A stretch of 64,000 nucleotides of DNA, taken from assembly GCA_963674755.2 (NCBI GenBank), contig CAXXVS010000003.1:224001-288000 (forward strand), in the 5' to 3' direction. Positions 20,247 to 41,454 of the stretch are shown one piece after another (position 1 is the first letter of the stretch; each line of letters begins with the position of its first letter). A program made the translations under genes and the position numbers. This DNA comes from Desulfobacterales bacterium. Its GTDB lineage: Bacteria; Desulfobacterota; Desulfobacteria; Desulfobacterales; UBA5852. The notes below the pieces were generated by a model, which did no database searches, had not been told where the DNA came from, and saw only the letters and a list, made by a program, of their open reading frames with translations.

Positions 20247-21116
20247 ATGAAGAAAAACGAAACCCCCCTGGATATAAACTGGCTAAACAGCAGGGCAAAA
20301 TATGACCGACAAGCCAGGAGCCCGGAAGTGCTTGATGCTTTTCTTGCGGAGGTGGAGAAAGCCCATATAACCTTGGCCGATTTAGGATGTGGGACGGGAA
20401 GCAATGCCCTGTTCTTATCGGAGAATTTGACTTCCCGCCACGCGGAATTTCATTTGGTGGAACGCGAAACATACCTTCTGGAAGAAGCCCGGCGACGCAT
20501 CAGGGAGAAAAATGCAGGATGTTGTGAGGAACACAATAATGCCGTTTATCTGAAAAATGGCGAATATCAGCATGCCTTTTATTTTTACAACGAACTGACA
20601 AGTGAATTTATGCGTCGCAAGGTAGACTTGCAGGTCGTATGTGCCAGTGCGCTCTTCGATTTGTTCACGGAGGATGAATTCCATGATCTGCTCAAGGGTT
20701 TGAAGCGGAGACATATGTCACTCTATGGCGTACTGAATTATTGCGGAACGGAATTTTCCCCATCGTGCGGAAGGGATGAAAAATTTGTAGGCTTATATGA
20801 AAACCATATGTCCCGCTTGCTGCGTAAAGGGCGCCCTATGGGTAAACGAACGATGACCTGTATTCAGGATGTGCTGAATCCGGAAAACGGTTGGAATTTA
20901 ACCGTTTCAGATAGCCCGTGGCTATTGGGTGCCAAAGAATCCGCTTTTATTTCCCAGAATCTGGCTTTTTATAAAAATGCGGTGCCGGAGTTGATATTGA
21001 ATCAGGAAGAGCAAACTGAATTCAATGAATGGATGGTGGAAAAGAAGAGAATGATTGCGGAACGAACGCTTGCAATGCGCGTTTATCATCAGGATTTTTT
21101 CGCAAGGTGTCTATGA
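20247..21116 (+). CDS. Class I SAM-dependent methyltransferase
   Basis: Motif I LADLGCGTGSN, VCASALFDL, GAGGA RBS, AT-rich codon usage. Confidence 0.85.
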   Translation: MKKNETPLDINWLNSRAKYDRQARSPEVLDAFLAEVEKAHITLADLGCGTGSNALFLSENLTSRHAEFHLVERETYLLEEARRRIREKNAGCCEEHNNAVYLKNGEYQHAFYFYNELTSEFMRRKVDLQVVCASALFDLFTEDEFHDLLKGLKRRHMSLYGVLNYCGTEFSPSCGRDEKFVGLYENHMSRLLRKGRPMGKRTMTCIQDVLNPENGWNLTVSDSPWLLGAKESAFISQNLAFYKNAVPELILNQEEQTEFNEWMVEKKRMIAERTLAMRVYHQDFFARCL

Positions 21117-21952
21117 TCGTGTCTCACAATATACGCCGCTACTACGAGCATAACGAAAAAAAGTTCCGAAGACTTGGTATTGATACCAGAGATCACAATA
21201 TTCACCAGCCACTGTGGGACCGCAACACCAAAACAAAACGGCAGGCAGCCAATTACGCGAATCATTTGATGTTAAGGATCATCAAAGATACCTTAACGGG
21301 AGGAAAAAACCGAATTAACGTCCTGGATCTCGGCTCAGGATATGGCGCAACAATCAAGTATATTTTATCCAATGCCGATGCGGCTGCGCTGGAATTCTCC
21401 GGCATCACGATCAGTAGAGCACAAGCCGGTTTTGCCAGAGAGAAACTGGGTGAGCGTGTACGCATTGTTTGCAAAGATTATCATGACCTTTCCCGCTATT
21501 TCAGGGGCATGGATATCGTATATGCGATTGAAAGCGTTGTTCAAGCCCGGAATCTATCCGTTTTGTTGCGTGAAGTTTCCAGGGCTTTAAAGCCAAATGG
21601 CCTCTTTGTGGTTATCGATGATTTTATTGATGATCAAAGGGATCCCGAAATTGCCGATAGGCGGATAATTCATGACTATCAGGCCAACTGGTTTGCGGAC
21701 GGTTTGATGGATTCTAAATGTTTTCAGGCACTAGCCCTGAAAAACGGGCTGCGGCTGAAAAGAGCTGACAATTTAAACCCATACGTGAAGTGGTCTATGA
21801 GGTCGCGGGTGACGGCGTTATTGTATCTAGCGGGTTTGCGGCACGCTGACAATCTTTACTTGAAGTCATTGATCGGCGGCGGGGCGCGACAAGTGGCGAT
21901 CAAGAGGGGGATCCTGAATTATCGAATGGCCCTGTTTACCAAATCCCCGTGA
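21113..21952 (+). CDS. Class I SAM-dependent methyltransferase (sterol/tocopherol-MT-like)
   Basis: VLDLGSGYG, GITIS..Q, YAIES, LKPNG. ATGA overlap with the upstream gene. Confidence 0.85.
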   Translation: MIVSHNIRRYYEHNEKKFRRLGIDTRDHNIHQPLWDRNTKTKRQAANYANHLMLRIIKDTLTGGKNRINVLDLGSGYGATIKYILSNADAAALEFSGITISRAQAGFAREKLGERVRIVCKDYHDLSRYFRGMDIVYAIESVVQARNLSVLLREVSRALKPNGLFVVIDDFIDDQRDPEIADRRIIHDYQANWFADGLMDSKCFQALALKNGLRLKRADNLNPYVKWSMRSRVTALLYLAGLRHADNLYLKSLIGGGARQVAIKRGILNYRMALFTKSP

Positions 21953-22315: not shown

Positions 22316-23755
22316 ATGAAACAATTCTGTCATTATCACCCTGCCAAGCCGGCCTACTGGTCCTGCCAAAGATGCGGCAAGACCATGTGCCAGGAGTGTG
22401 TCGAAGCCCGGGATATGGGGGGCCACCGCCAGGGACAAAAGCTCCACGTCTGCCCCAACTGCAACCTGCCGCTCCATTGGCTGGGCGTCGGCAACATCAT
22501 CGATCCCTTCTGGAAACGTATCCCCAGGTTTTTCCTTTATCCTCTCTCCCTCCGGCCGCTGACCTTGATGCTGGGATTGTCGGTGGTTGCGGCCCTGCTG
22601 CCCAAGGCAGGAATCCTGGCCATCGTGGGGGCCGTCGGGATTTGGGGGATGGCGTTCAAGTACGCCTATGCGATCCTCAAAAACACGGTGGGCGGCGACC
22701 TCACCGCGCCGCCTCTGAATGCAACGAACCTCTATAAGGATTTCGGACCGGTCGCCAAGCAGGTCGGCATCTATGCGGCGTTCTATTTTGCGGTGGGGTT
22801 TGTGTTCATAGAAATCGGCCGGGGCGTCGGAATCCCCTTCCTGATGCTGGCCACGCTGTTTTTGCCCGCCATGATCATGCTGCTGGTCTGCACCGAATCC
22901 CTGCTGGCCGCGCTCAATCCGCTTATGTTCGTAAGGCTGGCCGTGAAGATCGGGTGGGGCTATCTGTTGATGTACTTCTTCTACAGCACCCTTGCCGGAG
23001 CGCCGGCCTTGCTCGGCCATCAGGTGCTGCCCCTTTTGCCGCCGCTGCTGCACGTTTTTCTCTTCACGCTCCTTCAAATCTACTACACCTTCATATCCTA
23101 CCACCTTATGGGATATGTTATCCTGCAATACCACGAGGCCCTTGGCTACCAGGTTGATTTCGAGGATTTCAAAACCCCGGATGCGGGCCAGGGGGGCGAC
23201 GCCGCTGCGGCCGATTCCCCCGAGGCCCACTTGCTCAAGCGGATCAATCAACAAATCAAGGACGGCGACCACGATGGTGCGCTGCGAACCATTGAGAGGG
23301 AAACCGGCGGAAAGAGGATTTCCGATCCGCTCCTTTCCGAGCGCTATTTTACCCTGCTGAAGATGACCGGCGCGGAAGAGCTGCCGTCACACGGGCGCCA
23401 CCACCTGGAGCTTCTGGTACGCGGACAGAAAAAAAGCGCGGCGCTCAGCGTCTATATGGACTGCCGGTCCGCAGACCCCGCCTTTGCGCCTTCGGCCGGA
23501 AGCCTGTTCAAGCTTGGCGGGTGGCTCGATGAAGCCGGTCAATCCAAGGAAGCCGTGGCCGCCTTCAGCACATTGACCAAGGCCTATCCCCAGGATCCGC
23601 TGGTGCCCAAGTCCTATTTCCGGGCGGCGCAGATCATCCACGCCCGGCTCTTGAACCCGAACAAAGCCCGGACGATCCTGGCGGGTTTGATCAAAAAGTA
23701 TCCCCAACACGACATCATCCCGTTTGTGGAGCGCTACCTGGCCCAGATGGGCTAA
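22316..23755 (+). CDS. Membrane protein: N-terminal B-box-like Zn finger, multi-TM (DUF4013-like) region, C-terminal TPR
   Basis: CHYHP...CQRCGKTMCQEC...CPNC, about 6 TM helices, and TPR-like helices ending in LIKKYP. Confidence 0.8.
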   Translation: MKQFCHYHPAKPAYWSCQRCGKTMCQECVEARDMGGHRQGQKLHVCPNCNLPLHWLGVGNIIDPFWKRIPRFFLYPLSLRPLTLMLGLSVVAALLPKAGILAIVGAVGIWGMAFKYAYAILKNTVGGDLTAPPLNATNLYKDFGPVAKQVGIYAAFYFAVGFVFIEIGRGVGIPFLMLATLFLPAMIMLLVCTESLLAALNPLMFVRLAVKIGWGYLLMYFFYSTLAGAPALLGHQVLPLLPPLLHVFLFTLLQIYYTFISYHLMGYVILQYHEALGYQVDFEDFKTPDAGQGGDAAAADSPEAHLLKRINQQIKDGDHDGALRTIERETGGKRISDPLLSERYFTLLKMTGAEELPSHGRHHLELLVRGQKKSAALSVYMDCRSADPAFAPSAGSLFKLGGWLDEAGQSKEAVAAFSTLTKAYPQDPLVPKSYFRAAQIIHARLLNPNKARTILAGLIKKYPQHDIIPFVERYLAQMG

Positions 23756-23779
23756 CACGGACAAGACCGGGCAGGCTTC

Positions 23780-25249
23780 TCAGCGGGCGCCGTCCGCTTT
23801 ATGGATGATGGCCGCCTCCGCGGAATCCGGATACCGTTTGCGGATCAGGCGTCGGTAGTCTTCCCAGCGGTCATGCCGGCCTTTTTGCCGAAAGGCCTGG
23901 GAAAGCTTGACCAGGCTCGACGGCAGACCCGGCGTCTGGGGCTGCTGCTTCATGATGGCCAGGATGATTTTCTCGGCCCCGTCGATATGGCCGGCCGTTA
24001 CCATGGCCCCGGCCACCTGCAGGTACAGCGGAATCGCGAGACGTGGACGGCGGGCCAGGTCGGCATACGCCCCATAGCATTCAACGGCGGCGGCATGATC
24101 GGCCCGATTGCGCAGCAGGACGTGCAGCCGCCGGCGGGCCGTGTCGTGGAAAACCTCGGATTGGGGATTGAGTTTATGGATATTGAAGAGATGTTTGAGG
24201 GCCTCCGGGTCTTCGGGTGACAACACGAGCACCTGTTCCAGCAGGCGCCGGGCCTCGGTCATCTCCAGTTGACCCATGTGTTCCAGGGCCTGATGCATCA
24301 AGCGCTGGGCTTGTTCTTGCGGCGACGCCTTGAAACTGTCCCGGTCAACACGGCTTAACCATCGTTTTGCGGCCACGGCCAGCAGCGCGCCGGTGACAAT
24401 GCCGCCGATATGCGCCACGTAGGCCACCTGGGTGGCATCGCTGAAATAGAGCTGATAAACTTCATTGGCCAGCCAGAGCGGAAGGAGCAGGATGGCCGGA
24501 ATTGCAACCGTGTCGAAGAAGAACCCGAGGGAATAGAAGACATTCACCCTTGTCCTGCCATACAGCACCGTGTAAGCCCCCATCAACCCCGCAATCGCCC
24601 CGGAAGCCCCCACCAGCGGCGTGGTACTGGAAGGATAGACCGCGCAAAATGCGGCTGCCGCCGCCAAGCCGCTCGCCAGATAAATGACGAGAAACAGAAC
24701 GCGGCCGGCACCGATCTCCAACATGCATCCCAGGATCCATAAAAAAATCATATTGCCCACAAGGTGCCCGACATCGCCGTGCAGAAACATGTGGGTAAAG
24801 AAGGTGGCGGGTCGTGGATAGGCCGGCCGGAGCCCGAAAGAAAACGCCGTGCTCTGGTTGCGATGCCGCTCGTAGGTGTGACGGGATGATTGCCATAGCG
24901 CAAACTGGGAATCTTCGCGCGGAATAACGCCGCCGTCCCTAAGGCGGTCAAGAAAAGCCGCATCTTCTTCCATCGCCATATGGACCGCCATGGCGGCTTC
25001 CACATCCATGGCTTCGATATCCTGCTGCTCGGGGGTGGTCTTGCCCTCTGCCTTCAGATAGTCGACATAGAGGGGTATTTCGATCTCGGCCAGGCCCGAG
25101 TCAAAATAGTACTGCTCGGCGGCAATCCTGTTCTCGCCGTCGTTTAATTGAAACACGAAGAAAACAAGACAATTGACCACCAGAAGTGTCAATGTGGCCA
25201 GCGGCGGGTTTTTCCATCCGATTTTCCCGGATACAGGTATAATGAGCAT
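23780..25249 (-). CDS. Rhomboid intramembrane serine protease with C-terminal TPR region
   Basis: HMFLHG..HLVGNM, catalytic GASGA and AHIGG, TPR-like C-terminus. Confidence 0.92.
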   Translation of the reverse strand: MLIIPVSGKIGWKNPPLATLTLLVVNCLVFFVFQLNDGENRIAAEQYYFDSGLAEIEIPLYVDYLKAEGKTTPEQQDIEAMDVEAAMAVHMAMEEDAAFLDRLRDGGVIPREDSQFALWQSSRHTYERHRNQSTAFSFGLRPAYPRPATFFTHMFLHGDVGHLVGNMIFLWILGCMLEIGAGRVLFLVIYLASGLAAAAAFCAVYPSSTTPLVGASGAIAGLMGAYTVLYGRTRVNVFYSLGFFFDTVAIPAILLLPLWLANEVYQLYFSDATQVAYVAHIGGIVTGALLAVAAKRWLSRVDRDSFKASPQEQAQRLMHQALEHMGQLEMTEARRLLEQVLVLSPEDPEALKHLFNIHKLNPQSEVFHDTARRRLHVLLRNRADHAAAVECYGAYADLARRPRLAIPLYLQVAGAMVTAGHIDGAEKIILAIMKQQPQTPGLPSSLVKLSQAFRQKGRHDRWEDYRRLIRKRYPDSAEAAIIHKADGAR

Positions 25250-25500
25250 GACGTTCTTCCCTGGAAGCCAGAATGATGCCGTTTCAAAATGTAAAACGCT
25301 CACGCTTGAGGGAAATTAAAAAGGCAATCATCCCATATGTCAAATGCTAATACCGGCTCCCCTGCGATCAGCAGGTTCTCCCGCCAGTCGTAGCGGCCGG
25401 TTAGGGAGGGCGGGGATAGGTCTGTTCGGTGGGAATTTCGGTGCATCAATCCACTCCCGTTTGAGTTTGCCAATTTGCCGGATGACCACCCGGCTTTCGC

Positions 25501-26001
25501 CTACCAGCCGTAGATGCGCACCACAGCGCGTTGCAGCAATAGGCGCAGGGTGGCCGCGTCGGTGTCGCTGAGGGGACAGCGGGCCTTTTTAGCGCCCCTG
25601 CTCAGGGACATAAAATAGCCGAAGCGCTCACCCCGTTGCAGCTGCAGACAACTCTTCGGCAGGGTGCCGTCGCTGCCGCCGCCCCGGACCTTGTTCGGAT
25701 CGTGAACAATTTGGCAGGTCCGGCCCTCCAAGCCCGCCAGAATATGCTGGATATCCGTGTCGGAAAGCTTCATCACGACCTTGCCGGCCCAGTCGTAGAC
25801 GAGGTTGCCGTGTCGGTCGGCTTGGTCGACGGCATTGGCCATCTCGACCATTAGGTGGCCCTTTTTCAGGACATGGACGTCGCCGTCGCGGGCGGCAAAG
25901 ATCTCGCCGTCAAAATGGGCCGGCTTCAGGGTAAACTGCACCGCTCCGGTGCGATTGTGGATCTTGAATGACGGGCACTGCATCTGGGGTTGATCACTCA
26001 T
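25501..26001 (-). CDS. Whirly-domain protein (putative ssDNA-binding)
   Basis: Colinear matches to plant Whirly motifs: KKGHLMVEMA, YDWAGK...LSDTDI, CQIVHDPNK, GYFMSLS, PLS, and terminal YGW. AGGAG RBS. Confidence 0.8.
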   Translation of the reverse strand: MSDQPQMQCPSFKIHNRTGAVQFTLKPAHFDGEIFAARDGDVHVLKKGHLMVEMANAVDQADRHGNLVYDWAGKVVMKLSDTDIQHILAGLEGRTCQIVHDPNKVRGGGSDGTLPKSCLQLQRGERFGYFMSLSRGAKKARCPLSDTDAATLRLLLQRAVVRIYGW

Positions 26002-26259
26002 GGGTCGCTTCTCCTGGTTGGGATTTTAATAGCGACCGAATATTAGCAATTTTCGTACCCGCATACCGCTTGCCCGGTCCCCCACATTCGTGGCCGCCGG
26101 ATGGCCATCGGCCACGCCTTGCGGCTACGGGCTTTTTCCCACGCGCCGGCGATGGTCTTTATGGTATCCTTATACGTGGTTTGGTATGGGTACCCCCATG
26201 CATTGCCCGGTTTTCAGTGCAGCACCGCCCATTTTTAAGCGCGTCCTTGCAGGGGAGAA

Positions 26260-26971: not shown

Positions 26972-27226
26972 TCAATCAAGGGAAACCATCGCAGGCGCGG
27001 TTTGCAAGGCCGTGACAACTTCGCCCCAACGTGCGGCTTGCGTCTTGGTGGGCTCACTTCGCGGATCAATCGGCGCCTGGCCGCCTTGGAGGCTTGCAGG
27101 GGCCACCTCGAAGCCATGGGCCCTGAATTCCAAATAGGGTGCCGCCGCTTCTTCCAACCACAATCCTGCAGGGTGACTGTCATCGATATGGTAGTGACTG
27201 GTGACCACCATTAATATCGTTTTTGT
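26972..27226 (-). pseudogene. Truncated DJ-1/PfpI (type 1 GATase-like) gene
   Basis: TKTILMVVTSH...GLWLEE..PY..F...ASLQGG.APIDPRS then an early stop. The catalytic Cys half is missing. Confidence 0.75.
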
Positions 27227-40366: not shown

Positions 40367-40615
40367 CTGAGGCAGGACATGGCGGCGCATTAAACCCGGA
40401 GCGTATCGCAACCTGCTCGGTGGCAAACGGGTCTTTCACGTCTGGCCCTTGACGGAACGCCCGTGGAACGATGGTCTAACCGGCGTCGTCCATGCCCGCC
40501 CCATCACGCCGACTTCCGCAAAGTTTGCACACTAATCAGGGCACCATGGCGCCCGTTTAGGGCAATTTCTCAACCTCCCCCCAACGAACACCCCGTAATC
40601 ACAAGATTGTTTTCT

Positions 40616-40630
40616 TGGTATGCATATTGC
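40616..40630 (+). promoter_or_regulatory. Candidate sigma-54 promoter
   Basis: TGGT-N7-TTGC (TTGGTATGCATATTGC) upstream of the Sel1 gene. Confidence 0.4.
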
Positions 40631-40749: not shown

Positions 40750-41454
40750 ATGAAATACCAAGCTTGGGTTGGCTTTATCGCGCTGGTCGTCACCTGCACG
40801 CCGGTGGCGGGTCTATGCGCCGGAAATACACTTATTGACGCGGCGAACTTGATGGATCAGGGGCAAACGGCGGAAGCCCTTCAGCTATTCGAGAAGCTGG
40901 CGGCCGAAGGGGACGACCGGGCCATGGTGCTGTTGGGCGTCTATTACTACCAGGGGGACAAGGTGCAACAGGACTATGACAAGGCCATGGACTGGTTTCT
41001 GCGCGCCTTCGCACGCCAAAATGCCGCGGCCTTCGTCTATCTTGGCGCCATGCACTACGAGGGGCATGGTGTACCGCAGAACAAAAAAATCGCCTACTGC
41101 GTCTTCCTGACAACCCATATGGGCGGATTGGGTTCACAAACGACACAGCTTCGTTCAAATCGCTATTTAAGACGAATTTTAAACGAGCTGTCCCAGGAAG
41201 ATGTCAAGGATTGCCTTTCGCACTATACCCGGGGCTGCATTAGGGCCTATCTCGATCAAAAGGAAACGCTGGTCTTCAGCCTCGACCATCCGGTCAACCC
41301 GGTGTCCTGCGACTGGAACGAATGGCAGCAACCGGCCTACGCCCTGAAAAACAAAATGGAGAGTTTTGCGCTTCTTCATGGCAAAGAGCCACGCAGCAAG
41401 ACGACTGATCTGCCGGCGAATTCACCGGAACTGCGGTTCAGGGTTGAAAAGTAA
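40750..41454 (+). CDS. Secreted Sel1-repeat protein (C-terminus possibly chimeric)
   Basis: Signal peptide, LGVYYYQG..V.QDY.KA..W and LGAMHYEGHGVPQN repeats. Confidence 0.75.
   Translation: MKYQAWVGFIALVVTCTPVAGLCAGNTLIDAANLMDQGQTAEALQLFEKLAAEGDDRAMVLLGVYYYQGDKVQQDYDKAMDWFLRAFARQNAAAFVYLGAMHYEGHGVPQNKKIAYCVFLTTHMGGLGSQTTQLRSNRYLRRILNELSQEDVKDCLSHYTRGCIRAYLDQKETLVFSLDHPVNPVSCDWNEWQQPAYALKNKMESFALLHGKEPRSKTTDLPANSPELRFRVEK

Follow-up and report, generated by a model that had tools for sequence, protein, structure and literature searches.

A Whirly-family gene with a predicted sigma-54 enhancer promoter in Desulfobacterales, related to proteins of phages and conjugative elements

The 64,000-nucleotide stretch of Desulfobacterales DNA analyzed here (the window) carries a Whirly-family gene, which an earlier note made from the letters alone had described as a standalone 166-amino-acid open reading frame with a ribosome-binding site and as a chromosomal, uncharacterised prokaryotic homolog of the plant Whirly proteins, which bind single-stranded DNA (ssDNA). 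The description of the gene is borne out: an AGGAG Shine-Dalgarno sequence precedes the start codon (Table 1), orthologues mostly have a GGAG- or GGAGG-type sequence at the same place, and Whirly stands between a downstream rhomboid-TPR gene and, on the other side, a divergent gene of the ICMT family. A chromosomal location is supported by the 2.8-Mb length of the contig (C3), by a GC content at third codon positions (GC3) of 0.79 for Whirly compared with 0.70-0.77 in four flanking genes, and by the absence of tRNA genes from the window. The encoded protein has an isoelectric point of about 9.3, ends in IYGW, and lacks both a transit peptide and an acidic tail.

Sequence and fold together prove Whirly homology. 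Specifically, i) the Pfam Whirly profile PF08536 matches at E 1.6e-12 and 47.9 bits (gathering cut-off 23) over profile positions 2-113 of 136, and is the sole Pfam match of the protein at E<=1, while 14 control genomes gave no hit at all; ii) the single-chain (beta x4, alpha) x2 fold has the solved Whirly structures as its closest relatives, and superposes on plant Whirly with a root-mean-square deviation of 2.1 A over 147 residues; and iii) the seven peptide motifs quoted in the earlier note are all present in the order given, align with the plant motifs both by HMMER (against 4koq, 1l3a, 4koo, and 4kop) and by MAFFT (with named plant WHY1 and WHY2 proteins), and include the conserved YDW, HDP, and terminal GW. 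The OB-fold profile of ordinary ssDNA-binding protein (SSB), PF00436, finds no match, and the C-terminus reads IYGW instead of an acidic ...PF tail. W71 and H100 are invariant in 57/57 sequences and correspond to StWhy2 W110 and H139, which we take to be DNA-touching residues. This correspondence was counted from F138 in the published numbering (PMC3245945) and from the HMMER alignment.

The divergence of the KGKAAL motif had also been read correctly, and is real at the lysine of the 24-mer: the motif position is NRTGAV, with one of six letters identical, and the second lysine (K67) aligns to T18 in the MAFFT alignment with plant WHY1 and WHY2. Among 37 close homologues T18 is found in at least 90%, while R17 and G19 are invariant. 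A K67A substitution in the plant protein is reported to abolish 24-mers and cooperativity but to preserve binding to short ssDNA (PMC3245945), and because threonine occupies this position here, the window's Whirly probably forms tetramers rather than the plant 24-mer.

Upstream of the gene we find a new feature that the earlier note had missed, a conserved arrangement of predicted sigma-54 promoter and palindromic enhancer (Table 1; Desulfovibrio promoter consensus tGGcacg/tTGCt, PMC4641369). By an ad hoc score, and among loci that are kin, a threshold of 12.5 is reached within 400 bp by 12 of 15 distinct loci, compared with 14.3% of random windows, and one of 13.5 by 10 of 15 loci, compared with 1.8%. 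A Gibbs search recovered an 18-bp palindrome (information 15.8, compared with 9.8 at width 17) located 156-161 bp upstream of the promoter, often with a second copy at 179-183 bp. When kin groups were left out in turn, a test not fully independent because all loci, that of the window among them, had supplied the seed pattern, 0/100 shuffles scored as high in 9 of 12 loci and 2-5/100 in the rest; and a matrix built without the window and two congeners ranked the Whirly promoter first of 5185 sigma-54-like sites. The flanking genes vary from locus to locus but the distance of the palindrome from the Whirly promoter does not, which assigns the sites to Whirly rather than to the divergent ICMT gene. 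The host genome also encodes rpoN and about 69 activators, so that at the level of sequence Whirly has the features of a sigma-54-dependent gene. No sigma-70 promoter was found for Whirly, and terminator-like matches occur at chance level. None of 11 upstream regions of mobile-element or phage Whirlys reaches a score of 12, and among those checked the predicted enhancer promoter is limited to this clade.

Several candidates for the regulatory circuit were tried and rejected. In 3/13 loci a PAS activator similar to OrpR is encoded 2-4 kb from Whirly, yet the palindrome differs from the OrpR site as given in PMC8359166, and no matching site occurs in the D. vulgaris tables. Activator loci C3:499666 and C3:468246 each have a weak palindrome upstream, neither of them convincing. 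A wider regulon fared no better, with a promoter near only 6/21 intergenic sites scoring >=13; only the Whirly gene combines the 160-bp spacing, a strong promoter, and an adjacent gene. Control by the SOS repressor LexA was also discarded, there being no operator shared with recA or lexA (the uvrA and recN genes were not located); the best 16-mers shared with the Whirly upstream region fall in the Shine-Dalgarno region (recA) or match at 13/16 (lexA). The former covers Whirly 26002-26017, from Shine-Dalgarno sequence to start, and agrees with the recA 5′ region (G000, C2) at 15/16 bases, which may reflect chance or shared translational control. Elsewhere in the window a strong copy of the palindrome stands 89 bp upstream of a sigma-54-like promoter and a gene for a secreted Sel1/TPR-like protein, a possible second target of the Whirly activator. 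At loci L003 and L004, tandem 7-8-bp repeats between promoter and start codon stretch the 5′ leader to 320-360 nt.

Table 1. Positions of the Whirly gene, its predicted control elements, and other features of the window
Feature	Position	Strand	Remarks
Whirly-family gene	25501..26001	-	166-aa open reading frame, ATG start, single Whirly domain
Shine-Dalgarno AGGAG	26011..26015	-	9 nt 5′ of the Whirly ATG
Predicted sigma-54 promoter GG-N10-GC (-24/-12)	26046..26059	-	fits Desulfovibrio consensus
Predicted activator site 1	26204..26221	.	18-bp palindrome, TGCMCTG-N4-CAGKGCA type, 160 bp upstream of promoter
Degenerate activator site 2	26226..26243	.	22 bp further up; weak here, strong in several orthologues
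Pair of SAM methyltransferase genes	20247-21952	+	low GC (47%, GC3 about 0.5)
Convergent gene pair	22316-25303	+ and -	zinc-finger/membrane/TPR protein (+), rhomboid protease-TPR (-)
Fragment like ThiJ/PfpI	26972-27211	-	79 aa, E 0.033
Palindrome copy	40526-40543	+	18 bp, strong
Sigma-54-like promoter	40617-40630	+
Secreted Sel1/TPR-like gene	40750-41454		234 aa

Close relatives of the gene are patchily distributed. Among 102 candidate homologues, 39 are 55-93% identical to the window's protein, and the 13 genome loci are labeled Desulfobacterales or Desulfobacteraceae (10), deltaproteobacteria (2), and Pseudomonadota (1). The gene is single copy and present in 15/401 genomes of the order (12/278 high-quality ones), in 5/5 genomes of one family, and in 2/9 congeners (2/12 in a separate search). 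It is under purifying selection, as judged from a ratio of nonsynonymous to synonymous substitution rates (dN/dS) of 0.13-0.29 in comparison with each of 17 locus copies, 13 of them distinct, computed on 160 codons counted from Met7. Shadow frames aside, neighbor families are shared by at most 5 of 18 loci, and DNA-repair genes are not among them. The convergent pair downstream of Whirly is found at none of the other Whirly loci; the SAM (S-adenosylmethionine) methyltransferase pair, probably a recent acquisition, lies directly beside Whirly in the congener locus L001; and the ThiJ/PfpI-like fragment is possibly a truncated gene.

Beyond this clade the family extends into phages, conjugative elements, and archaea. 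A full scan yielded 69 Whirly representatives, to which 12 distinct IMG/VR contigs (45-229 kb), a Micrarchaeota metagenome-assembled genome (MAG), and proteins of an uncultured archaeon and a phage with existing Whirly labels added further members. In one test set 7/7 viral reading frames exceed the Pfam Whirly cut-off, and the L024 reading frame has no Pfam match; 6/8 viral loci lie near RNase H, Pol A/UDG, a 3′-5′ exonuclease, ribonucleotide reductase, or thymidylate kinase, a count based on hand-picked neighbor genes, and L024 has no such neighbor. The ESM Atlas clusters nearest the window's protein are 43-100% viral. In genome G099 Whirly stands in the order SbcD, SbcC, RNase H, RepA, DnaG, Whirly, UvsW-type helicase, ParB, DnaB, TraL/E/K/B/C, within a conjugative element (L025-L026, C1 940000-980000) with F-type tra genes after DnaB; its C-terminus, DDIPF, resembles what we take to be the tail of bacterial SSB. 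Similar SbcC/DnaB settings surround Whirly in G309 and G428, and in the nearest outgroup of known context TraU, TrbC, and TraF are encoded upstream of Whirly, and an integrase or RecD2 is found close by. The idea that Whirly replaces ordinary SSB was rejected: the host has an ssb gene away from the Whirly locus, the L032 virus has its own SSB, and G099 has two (none was found on the 116-kb L035 fragment, which is 61% complete). Because Whirly-bearing elements can carry an SSB of their own, Whirly would be an accessory protein.

Searches elsewhere returned little: four queries found no match in 50,697 GenBank phage records, IMG/VR held no locus for the Desulfobacterales clade, P0121, or the P0129 KGKAAL clade (leaving a viral origin of the latter unconfirmed), PHROGs gave a single weak match for 57 members and none for the window's Whirly, and no NCBIfam model matched any of five Whirlys. 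Among the large viral contigs, L031, L033-L037, and L040 have an AAA ATPase a few genes downstream of Whirly, often followed by DUF1257 (Ycf35-like; Pfam match in L040 only), and L038, L039, L040, and L051 have SpoVG genes within about 4 kb of Whirly, three of the four with an acidic or PF tail. A KGKAAL Whirly (P0124) on a 10-kb contig filed under a Thorarchaeota MAG is 79% identical to the L032 virus protein, and represents either an Asgard-associated virus or misbinning.

The earlier note had called the protein a bacterial homolog of plant Whirly and had proposed a phylogeny; membership of the same family holds, but the window's protein is not the branch nearest to plants, and instead belongs to a wide family of phages, conjugative elements, and archaea, in which it forms one of the branches. 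The tree comprises 113 of 150 rows and 173 columns (LG+G4, unrooted, bootstrap not settled); 37 rows were dropped as near-duplicates, fragments, or one long branch, and five fragmentary or repeat scan matches had been dropped earlier. The window's clade (100/97 with P0043) lies inside a 13-row group with conjugative-element proteins (98/92). On one side of another branch (100/99) are 25 eukaryote-type rows, 10 with a eukaryotic source name and 15 labeled by similarity. A joint clade of the window's Whirly and the eukaryotic rows is rejected by the approximately unbiased (AU) test (p-AU 0.0016; 52 rows, LG+G4). The neighbor of the eukaryotic rows is a six-row group including the IMG/VR virus L032 with KGKAAM (92/42, weak); this grouping of L032 with eukaryotes appears in the best tree at 78, is neither shown nor rejected by the AU test, and weakly suggests that the phage clade, and not the Desulfobacterales bacterium, is the current best sister of eukaryotic Whirlys. 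Exact KGKAAL occurs in ten short proteins without a transit peptide, eight of them in a clade that does not adjoin the eukaryotes, so the motif is not a plant invention. Five eukaryote-type Whirlys (P0139, P0170, P0181-P0183) have N-termini resembling signal peptides, which points to algae with secondary plastids that do not belong to the green lineage.

Taken together, these data lead us to favor, with moderate confidence, a tetramer that binds ssDNA in an accessory role, protecting it or aiding recombination, and whose gene would have been acquired from a conjugative element, maintained by selection, and made inducible by a single sigma-54 activator. The protein would most likely form a whirligig homotetramer and, as its family membership suggests, would bind ssDNA without sequence preference alongside the ordinary SSB of the cell, holding the single strands that recombination, repair, or DNA transfer exposes, preventing mis-annealing, and assisting RecA-type exchange, much as plant Whirlys are reported to stimulate RecA exchange in vitro (bioRxiv 10.64898/2026.10.24.761589). 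The origin of the gene would lie in the pool of Whirlys that conjugative elements and phages carry; some Desulfobacterales lineages would have retained it in the chromosome and connected it to a host sigma-54 promoter and an enhancer of its own, so that the protein would be made only upon activation of one enhancer-binding protein.

We wish to set out what weighs against this proposal: i) Whirly-fold proteins such as ChmC and MRP1/2 can prefer RNA, and plant WHY1 also binds RNA; ii) a swap of the whole KGKAAL motif is reported to abolish ssDNA binding in the plant protein (PMC3245945); iii) the tree has only 173 columns, is unrooted, and has an unsettled bootstrap, so the direction of transfer can only be inferred; iv) the SSB-type tail is rare (one clear case in 86 sequences) and is not found in the window's Whirly; v) no repair or recombination genes recur as neighbors at the Desulfobacterales Whirly loci; vi) recA, lexA, and ssb have no copy of the palindrome in their upstream regions (best score 4.6), which leaves a repair role without regulatory support; vii) three of 15 loci (L006, L011, and L012) have no promoter within 800 bp, and share an upstream MFS gene from which their Whirly may be read; and viii) the promoter score is ad hoc, the loci are kin, and the leave-out test shares its seed with the window.

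An RNA target is possible but less probable: with the same fold and regulation, the protein could be induced by a signal to chaperone or anneal RNA, in the manner of jumbo-phage ChmC or trypanosome MRP1/2, but its sequence kinship is to the ssDNA-binding plant Whirlys rather than to ChmC or MRP, and its mobile-element relatives lie among primase, helicase, and nuclease genes. Rather doubtful is a nucleoid-compacting or DNA-shielding protein of one stress or growth state, used as Dps or HU are and not as a recombination factor; a monocistronic gene with its own enhancer promoter would suit such a protein, and overexpressed plant Whirly is reported to compact E. coli nucleoids (PMC4758235), but threonine stands here in place of the lysine required to assemble 24-mers cooperatively on long DNA (PMC3245945), and only a small minority of genomes of the order carry the gene. 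The earlier note's suggestion of a sensor of foreign ssDNA, an anti-phage or anti-plasmid sensor or inhibitor, finds an echo in the patchy distribution and in the sPC4/Whirly-fold domains proposed as sensors in Shedu and Menshen (bioRxiv 10.1101/2023.08.10.552793, PMC12065111), but must be considered improbable: the protein has no effector domain, no PADLOC match, and no conserved partner gene, and eight neighbors gave only generic methyltransferase and ankyrin PADLOC matches 3.5-8 kb away. A mobile-element passenger without host function, to which absence from most congeners searched and variable flanks might point, is largely refuted and very improbable in view of the low dN/dS, host-like GC3, presence throughout one family, and a promoter and enhancer at fixed spacing while the flanking genes change.

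Whirlys have been called plant-specific or plant-unique (PMC9070903, PMC6963530, bioRxiv 10.64898/2026.10.24.761589), traced to the ancestor of Chloroplastida (PMC11135702), and proposed as a eukaryotic component that evolved in green algae (PMC4758235). A Whirly/Pur-alpha family is said to span all three domains of life (PMC13392464), the ChmC preprint mentions bacterial "Whirly-related proteins", and the fold is described in prokaryotes and phages (PMC7549692; the Shedu and Menshen papers), but these reports concern the fold and not PF08536. Our search, which did not cover subscription journals and may have missed members listed in bioRxiv supplements, found no study of prokaryotic PF08536 members, in agreement with the word uncharacterised in the earlier note; as far as it reached, the family outside plants is unpublished, yet automatically annotated in databases. 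Sequence-level Whirlys in bacteria, conjugative elements, phages, and archaea contradict the plant-specific view and make the origin of the family testable. We suggest very tentatively that Whirly is at root an ssDNA-binding family of phages and conjugative elements, captured by cells several times: once by eukaryotic algae for their organelles, from a large-phage lineage still possessing KGKAAL or KGKAAM, and separately by Desulfobacterales, which would have given it a dedicated sigma-54 enhancer circuit. If so, anaerobes would have a signal-switched, LexA-independent module for ssDNA protection or recombination and a natural tetramer-only Whirly, and a phage sister of the eukaryotic proteins would place Whirly among those parts of organelle DNA metabolism that derive from phages. 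The conserved enhancer promoter and the missing 24-mer lysine are specific to the Desulfobacterales clade and make function directly testable: the activator and its signal would reveal a bacterial use of a Whirly, and the window's protein is a natural K67-less variant for probing the contribution of the 24-mer.

Compared with known systems, the closest are the organellar Whirlys of plants and algae (StWhy1/PBF-2 p24, 1l3a; StWhy2, 3n1h; AtWHY1-3, 4koo/4kop/4koq), which share PF08536 and two beta-sheet/helix repeats per chain, whereas the window's protein is only 18-24% identical to them, has threonine at K67, lacks their transit peptide and acidic/aromatic C-terminal tail, belongs to a separate branch of the tree, and is encoded on a bacterial chromosome behind a predicted sigma-54 promoter. 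The same family includes A0A6J5NR37 from an uncultured Caudovirales phage, the best viral structural match (E 1.8e-8), and a "Whirly transcription factor [uncultured archaeon]", both with automatic labels only. T. brucei MRP1/2, Pur-alpha, jumbo-phage ChmC, and the sPC4 domains of Shedu and Menshen are single-stranded nucleic acid binders of the same superfold; MRP and Pur-alpha have lower structural scores than Whirly, HMMER gave no sequence match to proteins of this group, and ChmC and Shedu were not compared directly. A sensor of the Shedu or Menshen kind would be fused or linked to a nuclease or ATPase effector, whereas the window's Whirly is a single domain (longer fused homologues were not searched for). 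For its regulation the nearest parallel is found in the single-target sigma-54 regulons of Deltaproteobacteria, such as OrpR and the orp genes of Desulfovibrio vulgaris, likewise reported to combine a -24/-12 promoter with palindromic sites 100 bp or more upstream and a small regulon (PMC4641369, PMC8359166).
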